In this document: piece by piece, positions 1 to 4,092 of the stretch
Position numbering within the stretch: position 1 is the first letter of the stretch
Layout: every line of letters starts with the position of its first letter
Notes under the pieces: model-generated
Database searches by the model: none
Seen by the model: the letters and a program-made list of their open reading frames with translations, nothing else
Told to the model about the DNA's origin: nothing
DNA from: a virus
Lineage: Duplodnaviria; Heunggongvirae; Uroviricota; Caudoviricetes
DNA length: 6,068 bases
Direction: 5' to 3' (one strand)
Virus record (IMG/VR): IMGVR_UViG_2740892426_000002
Translations under genes and position numbers: made by a program

Positions 1-497
1 CTACTTATGAGTATGAAGGATTCGGCGTGGGTGCAACCTATGCTAAATCAGATCGCACTGACGGTCAGGTCGCCTATGGTAAGAGCAAATTCAATGCCTC
101 CGGCAAAAATGCGGAAGTATGGGCTGCAGGCCTGAAATATGATGCGAACAATATCTATCTGGCTACCACATATTCTGAAACTCAGAATATGACCGTTTTT
201 GGTAATAACCATATTGCAAACAAAGCACAAAACTTTGAAGCAGTAGCACAATATCAGTTTGACTTCGGTCTGCGACCATCTGTTGCTTACCTTCAGTCAA
301 AAGGTAAAGACCTTGGTGTTCATGGTGACCGAGACTTAGTCAAGTATGTCGATGTCGGTGCTACTTACTACTTTAATAAAAACATGTCCACTTTTGTTGA
401 TTACAAAATCAACTTAATTGACGATAGTAAGTTTACCAAAACAGCTGGTATTGATACCGACGACATCGTCGCTGTAGGTCTGGTTTATCAGTTCTAA
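1..497 (+). CDS. nmpC: General outer-membrane porin (OmpC/OmpF/NmpC family), 3' portion; the 5' end lies outside the window
   Basis: Frame is open from the window edge (codons from nt 3: [22 protein letters not shown]...) to TAA at 495-497. The translation ...[22 protein letters not shown]...[33 protein letters not shown]...[27 protein letters not shown]...[12 protein letters not shown] closely resembles the C-terminal beta-strands of enterobacterial general porins, including the terminal ...GLVYQF. It is convergent with the Q gene, as nmpC is with quuD in DLP12-type prophages. The symbol rests on recalled similarity and context, not a search. Confidence 0.85.
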
Positions 498-505
498 TCT
501 GACTT

Positions 506-548
506 ACGAAAAAGATATGTTGCGGGAGGCTTTGCCTCCGCAACATAT
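506..548 (-). terminator. Putative rho-independent terminator for minus-strand transcripts leaving the Q region (tR'-like); long bulged hairpin plus U-tract
   Basis: Inverted repeat ATATGTTGCGGGAGGC (515-530) / GCCTCCGCAACATAT (534-548) with a 3-nt loop gives a 15-bp stem with one bulged G. On the minus strand it is followed directly by CTTTTTCG (complement of + 507-514). There is no U-tract on the + side. Confidence 0.5.
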
Positions 549-634
549 AAGTGGAGCCCTCAAGCCACTTCCTTTAGAAGCACTACCTTGCTTCTTACTA
601 TATAAACCTTCTGTTATATATTACCCTTTATTTT

Positions 635-660
635 GGGGGCGTTTCCACGCCCCATTTTTA
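635..660 (+). terminator. Putative rho-independent terminator (copy 1) downstream of the porin gene
   Basis: Stem GGGGCGT (636-642), loop TTCC, stem ACGCCCC (647-653), then A + TTTTT (655-659) on the + strand. Confidence 0.55.
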
Positions 661-676
661 ATAACTTTTAGTAAAA

Positions 677-702
677 GGGGGCGTTTCCACGCCCCATTTT
701 TA
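677..702 (+). terminator. Putative rho-independent terminator (copy 2); may also act weakly on the minus strand
   Basis: Same hairpin and T5 tract as copy 1. On the minus strand this copy is followed by C + TTTT (complement of + 673-676), so some bidirectional activity between the convergent porin and Q genes is possible. Confidence 0.5.
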
Positions 703-727
703 ATAACTTTTAGTAAACAATTGCATA

Positions 728-1111
728 TCAATTAGAATTATTAGCAACGATATCCATATCTAACCGGATATCTAATGCCATTAACATCCCTTCAATTATG
801 CCCTCAGCCTTCTGTAACCTTTTCCCGATATAACCATCCGAGCAGCAATGCTTACTTGCCAGTGACATGAATGTCATACCACATACATAATAATCTACTA
901 ATAAATCGTGTAAATCGCTGTTGTTCTTTTTCAGACGGGCCATGCACCCGCAAATGATCATCGCGTCATCGTCACAACATTGCGGGCGAGATTTTACTTT
1001 TGAAGGAATTAATCCCTTAAAACCGGCGGCAACGGACGACCAGGTCACATCTTCATGATTATTAGCCGCCCACGCTCCCCAACGCTCAAGAACCATCTGA
1101 ATATCACGCAT
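728..1111 (-). CDS. quuD: Lambdoid prophage late-gene antiterminator Q homolog (QuuD-like, 127 aa, Cys-rich putative Zn-binding)
   Basis: ORF 728..1126 (-) reads [24 protein letters not shown]...[19 protein letters not shown]...[19 protein letters not shown]...NNSN. I prefer the ATG at 1111..1109, which has GGAG 7 nt upstream (TTGTGGAGTAAGTTGATG) and gives 127 aa; the ORF-track start at 1126 is a TTG. Stop TGA at 730-728. It follows rusA-ylcG as in DLP12. Confidence 0.85.
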
Positions 1112-3048: not shown

Positions 3049-4092
3049 ATGAAAATTAACAAGATATTATCATCTGCAACACTATTGTATGGTATGTCAA
3101 TGGCCATGTCGGTCGGGAGTTGTGCAACACCTGTCCAGACTAATCTTCCTGGTTACACCCCGGGTGCAGATATCATTAGTGTTTCACCGACCAGAAACCA
3201 AGTCGATCTCATTGGTGATGTTGTTTATTCCCAGATAAAAGGAACTCGTTCTGTCAGACAGCTTCACATGTCAGTTCTTGTCCCGCGAACAAATGATTTA
3301 AAACCAGCCATTATTTATTATCCCGGCGGCGGATTCATGTCTTCTGAACATGACAAATTTATTGAAATGAGAATGGCTCTGGCAGAAGCTGGTTTTGTTG
3401 TGGCCGCTGTAGAATACAGAACAATTCCTGATACATTTCCAGCACCAGTTGAGGATGGAAAAGCTGCAATACGTTACCTGAGAGAGCATGCCAGCAATTA
3501 TGGGATTGATCCTCAAAGAATCGGAGTTCTGGGTGACTCTGCCGGTGGATGGCTTGCTCAGATGATGGGAACTACAAATGGTGACAAAACCTTTGATAAA
3601 GGTGACTTTCTTCAGCAATCCTCAGATGTTCAGGCAGTTGCCACACTTTATGGGATTTCTGACTTGTTGAATATTGGCGAGGGGTTCCCTGAATCAGTGC
3701 AGGAGGTTCATCGCTCTCCTGCCGTAACCGAAGCCTTAATGATCAATGGCCCTGCATTCAGAAATTTTGCGGGAGCCCCCATCACAGCGTCAAAAGAAAA
3801 AGCGCTAAACGCCAGTCCAATCGGACATATGAAAGGAGTAAAACCCCCATTTCTTATTATGCATGGTAGCAAAGACACTCTGGTTTCACCTGAGCAAAGC
3901 GCCAAACTATTCAGGATGTTGAAGAAGAACGGCGATAACGCTGAGTACGTGCTGGTAGAAGGGGCCGAGCATGGCGATAAGACATGGTATCAGCCAATTA
4001 TTATAAACAGAGTCGTTGAGTGGTTTACTAAAAACCTGGGAGCGCCTATAAAAACAGCTCCCCAACAACAAAACCCAAACGCTAACCTGTAA
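3049..4092 (+). CDS. Secreted, probably lipoprotein, alpha/beta-hydrolase fold esterase/lipase (HSL/Abhydrolase_3-like), 347 aa
   Basis: N-terminal signal peptide MKINKILSSATLLYGMSMAMSVGSC with lipobox-like SVGS-C (Cys25). Oxyanion-hole-type motif YYPGGGF, nucleophile elbow GDSAGG, candidate acid in HGSKD and His in GAEHG are in the order expected for the catalytic triad. Stop TAA at 4090-4092. The Shine-Dalgarno is weak and the start context AT-rich. Confidence 0.85.
   Translation: MKINKILSSATLLYGMSMAMSVGSCATPVQTNLPGYTPGADIISVSPTRNQVDLIGDVVYSQIKGTRSVRQLHMSVLVPRTNDLKPAIIYYPGGGFMSSEHDKFIEMRMALAEAGFVVAAVEYRTIPDTFPAPVEDGKAAIRYLREHASNYGIDPQRIGVLGDSAGGWLAQMMGTTNGDKTFDKGDFLQQSSDVQAVATLYGISDLLNIGEGFPESVQEVHRSPAVTEALMINGPAFRNFAGAPITASKEKALNASPIGHMKGVKPPFLIMHGSKDTLVSPEQSAKLFRMLKKNGDNAEYVLVEGAEHGDKTWYQPIIINRVVEWFTKNLGAPIKTAPQQQNPNANL

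Follow-up and report, generated by a model that had tools for sequence, protein, structure and literature searches.

The locus considered here, the spacer between a porin gene and a convergent Q antiterminator gene, is crowded with predicted RNA hairpins, and the question that it raises is to which of its neighbors these hairpins belong and what they do there. An earlier note on this DNA, made from the sequence alone, had interpreted the spacer as the late control region that lies just downstream of Q in lambdoid phages, followed by a stack of terminators, one of them recently duplicated. The window that was analyzed, that is, the whole stretch of 6,068 nucleotides, comes, judging from sequence comparison, from a defective lambdoid prophage of Escherichia coli that resembles DLP12. 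The genes follow the order porin, quuD, ylcG, rusA, ybcO, ninE, ybcN, which is the same in DLP12 of strain K-12; the porin reading frame (27-497) matches the Pfam family Porin_1 with E = 1.8e-63, and relatives carry the annotation porin or OmpC/OmpD for the prophage porin of the window. The match of the window to the E. coli strain PAR spans 6,026 bases, and once any 42 consecutive nucleotides within 635-717 are removed, the two sequences are identical at 6026 of 6026 positions. The junction between the porin and Q is widespread, being present in 2,503 of the 5,426 complete E. coli genomes (~46%).

Farther along the window, inside the prophage and between ybcN and the replication genes, there are two more open reading frames that look like further cargo genes. 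One encodes a secreted alpha/beta hydrolase of 347 amino acids with a signal-peptide-like N-terminus (3049-4092, plus strand), and the other encodes a large inverse autotransporter with Ig-like repeats (4129-5925, minus strand), the start of which runs off; in K-12, ybcL/ybcM are found at this position instead.

Table 1. Features of the porin end, the spacer and the Q gene in the window. Hairpins, terminators and energies are predictions.
Feature	Position	Strand	Details
Porin gene, 3' part (nmpC/lc type)	1-497	+	stop codon 495-497
Spacer between porin and Q	498-727		230 bp
Structured 3' UTR of the porin mRNA, apparent IpeX equivalent	498-664	+	167 nt, five hairpins
HP1	506-548; stem 515-530/534-548	-	15 pairs, one bulged G, 3-nt loop
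HP2	549-570	+	AAGTGG-N10-CCACTT; -4.9 kcal/mol
HP3	576-595	+	AGAAGCA-CTACCT-TGCTTCT; -7.4 kcal/mol
HP4	599-620	+	TATATAA-N8-TTATATA, AT-only; -1.9 kcal/mol, weak or marginal
Repeat unit 1 with T1	635-676; stem 636-642/647-653, U-run 655-659	+	GGGGCGT-TTCC-ACGCCCC, then ATTTTTAA; -12.4 kcal/mol
Repeat unit 2 with T2	677-718; stem 678-684/689-695, U-run 697-701	+	GGGGCGT-TTCC-ACGCCCC, then ATTTTTAA
Q antiterminator gene, QuuD type	728-1111	-	127 aa; Pfam Phage_antitermQ, E 9e-54; quuD in RefSeq
Last seven Q codons and stop codon	728-751	-	beyond the end of homology to Stx-phage Q

The spacer is already known: it is the 3' untranslated region of the porin transcript that contains IpeX, together with the terminator of this transcript, and its only oddity is a private duplication of 42 bases. 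The part that begins at the first base behind the porin stop codon and reaches 5 nt beyond the U-run of T1 is exactly 167 nt long, and 158 of the 168 aligned positions (94%) are identical to those of the counterparts in K-12 DLP12 and in PA-2, which, over the corresponding 167 nt, do not differ from each other (167/167). Castillo-Keller, Vuong and Misra are said to have located ipeX, in 2006, between the nmpC stop codon and a predicted Rho-independent terminator, and they reportedly found the sequence downstream of lc in PA-2 to be identical to ipeX, an identity that is reproduced here in full. A 2025 review describes ipeX as a 167-nt RNA of DLP12 that originates at the porin promoter within the porin transcript, is processed from the porin mRNA and controls OmpC (PMC12197685), and IpeX has been reported to repress OmpC and OmpF (PMC5069750). 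This repression was reported for the allele of K-12 and PA-2, and the 94%-identical allele of the window, in which HP2 is weakened, may share it. On the strength of its sequence and position, we identify 498-664 as the known IpeX porin 3' UTR, with ends that follow the 167 nt given in the review.

The RNA is easily taken for a new one because there is no Rfam family for it and no annotation in the RefSeq records examined. An Rfam search with the window, the PAR locus and the Stx phage VT2-Sakai yielded no match to an IpeX or StxS family, the RefSeq record of K-12 does not have ipeX annotated, and the supplements of the 3'-end mapping by Adams et al. 2021 contain no entry for ipeX, quuD or nmpC. 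The sole Rfam match in the region, to a trypanosomatid snoRNA, had E = 0.42 and was dismissed as noise. One IMG/VR contig (L114, 3886-4587) has an insert of some 700 bp that separates the porin stop codon from HP1, with the junction exactly at the A5 run that precedes HP1 and with a terminator of its own, AACCCCCAGCCTAGCTGGGGGTTTT, at the end of the insert; this arrangement implies that the block from HP1 to T1 is separable from the porin gene.

Folding of both strands, which the earlier note had suggested as a check, yielded stable structures. The plus strand of 498-664 has a minimum free energy of -53.6 kcal/mol (z = -6.5) and the minus strand of 498-727 folds with z = -4.9, and in neither case was any of 200 shuffled sequences as stable; a consensus scan of 300-1300 detected four terminator-like sites compared to 0.7 expected from shuffles. 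To this extent, the description in the earlier note holds: terminator-like hairpins are indeed stacked between the convergent porin and Q genes, the minus-strand hairpin followed by T5 is present at 506-548, the inverted repeat at 549-570 is there as well, and two hairpins that had been overlooked, HP3 and HP4, are added to them.

HP1 has a predicted energy of about -19 to -20 kcal/mol, even when truncated, and is preceded on the plus strand by A5 (509-513), so that, on the minus strand, the hairpin comes first and C-UUUUU-CG follows (the tails are CTTTTTCG on the minus strand and AAGTGGAG on the plus strand). On the plus strand, the same hairpin opens the series of IpeX stem-loops, and no U-tract comes behind it. 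The base of HP1 that varies among the relatives (C, T or a gap) is the bulged one. HP2 is represented in most relatives by an 8-bp stem, AAGTGGCT-N6-AGCCACTT. Two peculiarities of the PAR-type allele can be mentioned here: AG in place of the CT of most relatives costs HP2 two base pairs, so that the stem has 6 bp and the loop 10 nt instead of 8 bp and 6 nt, and a C-to-G change at 540 pairs with the otherwise bulged C and so shifts the bulge of HP1.

Across 34 distinct alleles, the substitutions are located in loops, at the HP1 bulge or in positions where they yield G-U pairs, as in HP3, where an A-U pair is changed to G-U in eight relatives and the pairing is kept. Double changes were found in none of the 37 pairs, the mean column identity being 96%, and all changes in pairs are one-sided and lead to G-U. 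Given that the alleles are 96% identical, compensatory changes do not appear, and the backing for the structure comes from thermodynamics and the pattern of substitution, not from covariation.

If an intrinsic terminator is defined by a GC-rich stem, a short loop and a U-run that begins no more than 2 nt off the stem, four of the predicted structures have this form, namely, T1 and T2 on the plus strand (7 pairs, six of them GC, and a 4-nt loop), T2 on the minus strand, with the tail CTTTTACT, and HP1 on the minus strand. The required U-run is missing behind T1 on the minus strand, where the tail is AAAATAAA, and behind HP1 on the plus strand. T1 is, by this prediction, the intrinsic terminator of the porin/IpeX transcript.

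The feature of the spacer that sets the window apart is the tandem repeat. As the earlier note had recognized, there are two adjacent 42-bp units with 41 of 42 positions identical, the difference being in the last base (A in 635-676 and C in 677-718); Tandem Repeats Finder reports 635-717 with a period of 42, 2.0 copies and 100% matches. An open reading frame of 72 aa that extends across the repeat (517-735) is spurious. Compared to the single-copy locus, the insertion amounts to 41 copied bases and one extra A at position 676, where a clean duplication would give T or C; the phase of the insertion is arbitrary within 635-717, and no microhomology is detectable at its ends. A comparison of copy number across related prophages, another check proposed earlier, showed the unit to be single-copy in all of them. 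A 52-base probe that spans the junction of the two units had no match, by megablast or blastn, in the 5,426 complete E. coli genomes, and a local control demonstrated that the probe is detectable despite the low-complexity filter. The pattern of two such hairpins 10 to 40 bases apart was not found in the GTDB representative genomes, IMG/VR or the JGI metagenomes, and with the loop bases left free, there still was no match in IMG/VR. The single-copy motif, on the other hand, occurs in at least 120 viral contigs and in three contigs of E. coli genomes, with one copy at each locus; among the 5,426 E. coli genomes and the genome, viral and metagenome contigs, there was no other with two or more copies. 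The claim that the duplication is a recent event is borne out insofar as the variant is private to the window sequence.

In the metagenomes, the loosened pattern did retrieve 108 contigs, all of them with unrelated high-GC inverted repeats, and the AT-rich spacer was present in 0 of the 111 matches. Many high-GC contigs from JGI soil metagenomes (L134-L213, many of them from Ga0070739) contain paired hairpins of the form GGGGCGTGTCAACGCCCCGG..N..CCGGGGCGTTGACACGCCCC; this soil element is an unrelated repeated inverted repeat that matches the loosened pattern by chance.

Either the duplication is a variant private to this sequence or it is an artefact. An assembly or sequencing error at the hairpin or the homopolymer, or an introduced edit, would account for the fact that a two-copy allele is absent from all 2,503 complete E. 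coli genomes with the locus, as it is from the other databases, and that the unit is single-copy in all those viral contigs. The same explanation would fit the combination of zero differences from PAR over 6,026 bases with an A676 that neither way of making a clean duplication predicts, as well as the absence of microhomology at the insertion ends. However, tandem duplications with a filler base do occur in vivo, hairpins promote template switching, and the sequence itself bears no mark of an artefact, so we consider a non-biological origin of the second unit possible but on balance doubtful. Read-level verification is needed before anything is built on the duplication.

If the second unit is genuine, it would be, on the plus strand, a back-up terminator downstream of the normal 3' end of IpeX, and because it is located after this end, mature IpeX should stay unchanged. 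On the minus strand, the non-templated A676 becomes the first U of the tail UUUUACUA that follows the T2 hairpin (695-668), and this hairpin with its tail, on the Q strand just downstream of Q, scored as terminator-like, whereas the single-copy allele has no such site; the second unit thus may add a weak and incidental minus-strand terminator.

How the two strands would be transcribed can be proposed from the placement of the U-tracts. On the plus strand, the porin RNA would run past the stop codon, HP1 and HP2 to HP4 and would stop at T1 (636-659), leaving the 167-nt tail that constitutes IpeX; since HP1 lacks a U-tract in this direction, porin transcripts should pass it to reach T1. On the minus strand of the single-copy allele, T1 is followed by AAAAUAAA, which is not terminator-like. 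Given that T1 has no U-tract in this orientation in the ancestral allele and that HP1 is followed by C-U5, we infer that non-antiterminated transcripts from Q end at HP1. The structure predicted for HP1 on the Q strand (548 to 515, then C-U5) is that of an intrinsic terminator, with a stem length that is unusual for such a terminator and with five U's only. With the evidence coming from sequence features, HP1 with its U5 is most likely a terminator for the early-operon transcripts that leave Q in a non-antiterminated state.

It could be argued that this minus-strand function is the main one, that is, that the hairpins form a terminator stack of the early right (nin-Q) operon, that the plus-strand RNA simply ends the porin mRNA and that the effect of IpeX is a multicopy artefact. 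The U-tract of HP1 is indeed present on the minus strand only, a terminator-like site in the Q sense is likewise present in phage PhiR55_1, directly behind Q and before a different cargo gene, and IpeX was reportedly discovered, by Castillo-Keller and colleagues in 2006, as a multicopy suppressor. However, HP2 to HP4 and T1 have no minus-strand U-tracts, the block accompanies the porin rather than Q, and the plus-strand fold is the stronger of the two (z = -6.5 versus -4.9). Moreover, in PA-2 lysogens, lc transcripts with the IpeX tail are said to lower OmpC, a result that the 2025 review mentioned above also summarizes. Taken together, these observations render a primarily minus-strand role improbable.

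Under the assignment of T1 to the porin transcript and of HP1 to the Q transcript, the two unidirectional sites are interleaved, and the convergent RNAs would be expected to overlap by about 150 nt. Conceivably, Q-operon transcripts that end at HP1 carry a perfect antisense of about 150 nt to IpeX that, upon induction, pairs with the porin 3' UTR and titrates IpeX or triggers cleavage. We regard such regulation as a speculative and quite improbable extension of the overlap. If it did operate, the antisense tail of the Q mRNA would couple lytic development to the control of host porins, and the private duplication, by placing a hairpin with UUUU right after Q, would shorten the overlap.

The part of the earlier interpretation that did not survive is the central one, according to which the spacer contains, on the minus strand from 727 to 498, a late promoter PR', a qut site and a terminator tR' identical with HP1, so that a short 6S-like leader would end at HP1; under such a model, Q-dependent read-through would proceed antisense via the porin to the lysis genes. 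In its favor are the strong hairpin with U5 on the Q strand and the location directly behind Q, which is the same in lambda, 82, 21 and the Stx phages. However, the cassette is found elsewhere in homologous prophages, an outcome that the earlier note itself had listed as counting against its proposal. The Q protein of the window is 80% identical to that of VT2-Sakai over residues 1-120, and the depositors of the latter annotate a late promoter, a Q-utilization site and a terminator that begin inside the end of Q, with a second terminator some 200 bases on. Using dRNA-seq, Sy et al. (2020, PMC7547250) located the start of PR' in the Stx phages of strain Sakai 258 nt upstream of tR', a spacing consistent with the promoter and the second terminator that are annotated in VT2-Sakai. 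The conserved elements of this cassette are the promoter TTTACG-N16-TATGCT (TTTACG..CGTAAAAA), the motif TAAGAGTGGTTAC and the hairpin AACCCGCC..GCGGGTTTTT, and none of these has a match in the window, nor is there a significant match to a qut-like motif. A scan for sigma-70-like promoters found none in 498-727 on either strand, all matches in 300-1300 being inside Q, and an inspection by hand of the minus strand downstream of Q for relaxed -35/-10 combinations was equally negative.

The cassette can be located instead across the porin from Q. This is where, in strain PAR, the holin gene essD is found, and of the 300 bases that precede essD, positions 83-167 match the Stx-phage promoter region in several hundred records (E values from 6e-10 to 2e-17). 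Matches of the 85-bp cassette upstream of essD or the holin gene, in the same range of E values, were obtained for PAR, K-12, PA-2 and four viable phages, and a motif search locates the cassette in the interval that separates the porin start from the holin gene in PAR, K-12 DLP12, PA-2 and the viable phages Lambda_4C10, PhiR34_1 and Turner. In six porin-carrying relatives, it is found about 1.5 kb to the left of the first base of the window; in PhiR55_1, it is located behind a different convergent cargo gene, and in VT2-Sakai, directly after Q. This placement agrees with the description of the S-R-Rz operon of DLP12 as controlled by Q through a regulatory region directly upstream (PMC7918800). 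By homology, the real Q-loading cassette of promoter, qut and terminator is not in the window but on the other side of the porin, directly in front of the holin gene. With no promoter-like site on either strand of the spacer, the motifs of the family unmatched in the window, the homologous cassette placed ahead of the holin gene in every relative that carries the porin, viable phages included, and the spacer itself assigned to an inserted porin module rather than to the Q module, a late leader in 498-727 appears very improbable. The interpretation that had been offered for the locus is thus upheld for the terminator-like hairpins, the position between convergent genes and the recent duplication, and abandoned for the PR'/qut/tR' leader.

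In the late-promoter cassette, the -35 region forms a near-perfect palindrome, TTTACGTACGTAAA (L002, 5045-5030 on the minus strand; L004, 1504-1519), which is kept from DLP12-type phages to Stx phages and might be a protein-binding site.

Why the cassette and Q are so far apart becomes apparent from the end of the Q gene. When the genomes of phages were searched with Q by tblastn, the porin-linked phages matched residues 1-127 and all the others only residues 1-120; about 35 phage records have the full 127 residues, with an identity of at least 95%, and the number is again 35 for records in which 80% or more of the 481-base porin-Q query (380-860), with the spacer included, is covered. At the DNA level, the alignment with VT2-Sakai breaks right after GATATGGAT, that is, after the RLDMD codons. 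Because the homology to Stx-phage Q stops at codon 120, the segment 498-751 can be assigned to an inserted porin cargo module, and 728-751 is, by this alignment, the right-hand edge of the insertion. The inserted segment would extend from about 5 bases upstream of the -35 element of PR' to about position 751 of the window and would have supplied Q with a new tail of seven codons. We propose that a porin moron entered the prophage at codon 120 of Q, separating it from the late promoter, that it brought with it the porin's own promoter region, the porin gene, the structured 3' UTR and the intrinsic terminator, and that 498-727 would be the distal end of this module.

Codon 120 of Q (position ~751) is, in its own right, a recurrent point of cargo insertion. 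Phage 1H12 has a lipocalin (Blc) gene at this site and PhiR55_1 has a hypothetical gene (L009, 2035-2559, and L010, 1951-2397); each of these cargo genes is convergent with Q and gives it a different short C-terminal tail.

Of the explanations that were weighed, the least credible is that the 42-bp unit is a dispersed REP- or MITE-like repeat that landed twice: a GC-rich hairpin with AT-rich flanks would suit such an element, but every related locus has exactly one copy, always in the same position, the window contains no further copy, and the loosened-pattern matches from metagenomes are the unrelated high-GC sequences without the AT-rich spacer described above.

The reading that we favor, with a probability of roughly 0.85, is that the locus is the end of a porin moron that carries the IpeX 3' UTR and a terminator, with the late-control cassette located elsewhere and the 42-bp duplication private to this sequence. 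The IpeX-containing porin 3' UTR of DLP12-type prophages is present in about half of the complete E. coli genomes, and, in annotation, PR'/tR' should not be assumed to follow directly after Q in the Q family to which the window belongs, where cargo has been inserted repeatedly at codon 120, pushing the late-control cassette more than 1.5 kb away.

It is instructive to compare the locus with the known systems that it resembles. With the PR'-qut-tR' regions of lambdoid phages, which yield the 6S RNA in lambda and StxS in the Stx phages, it shares an adjoining Q gene of the Stx family and a Q-sense hairpin followed by a U-run; the spacer of the window, however, has neither a promoter nor a qut/QBE motif, and the true homologue of the Stx-phage cassette is found upstream of the holin gene, with the porin module between this cassette and Q. 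With phage morons, cargo units of promoter, gene and terminator that are found inserted among phage genes, the locus shares a self-contained cargo gene that is convergent with Q and has its own intrinsic terminator, at a site that is also used in 1H12 and PhiR55_1. The convergent genes do not have a single bidirectional terminator hairpin in common; there are apparently two unidirectional ones, interleaved in such a way that the transcripts would overlap. Finally, with IpeX (inhibitor of porin expression), the RNA derived from the 3' UTR of DLP12 nmpC and PA-2 lc (Castillo-Keller, Vuong and Misra 2006, J Bacteriol 188:576), the window has in common the neighbors, porin and quuD, the length of 167 nt and the placement, which begins behind the porin stop codon and ends at the first intrinsic terminator. 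The allele of the window differs from that of K-12 and PA-2 by 10 changes, which include the shifted bulge of HP1, an HP2 that is 2 bp shorter and another terminator loop, and by the extra copy of the terminator unit behind the normal 3' end.
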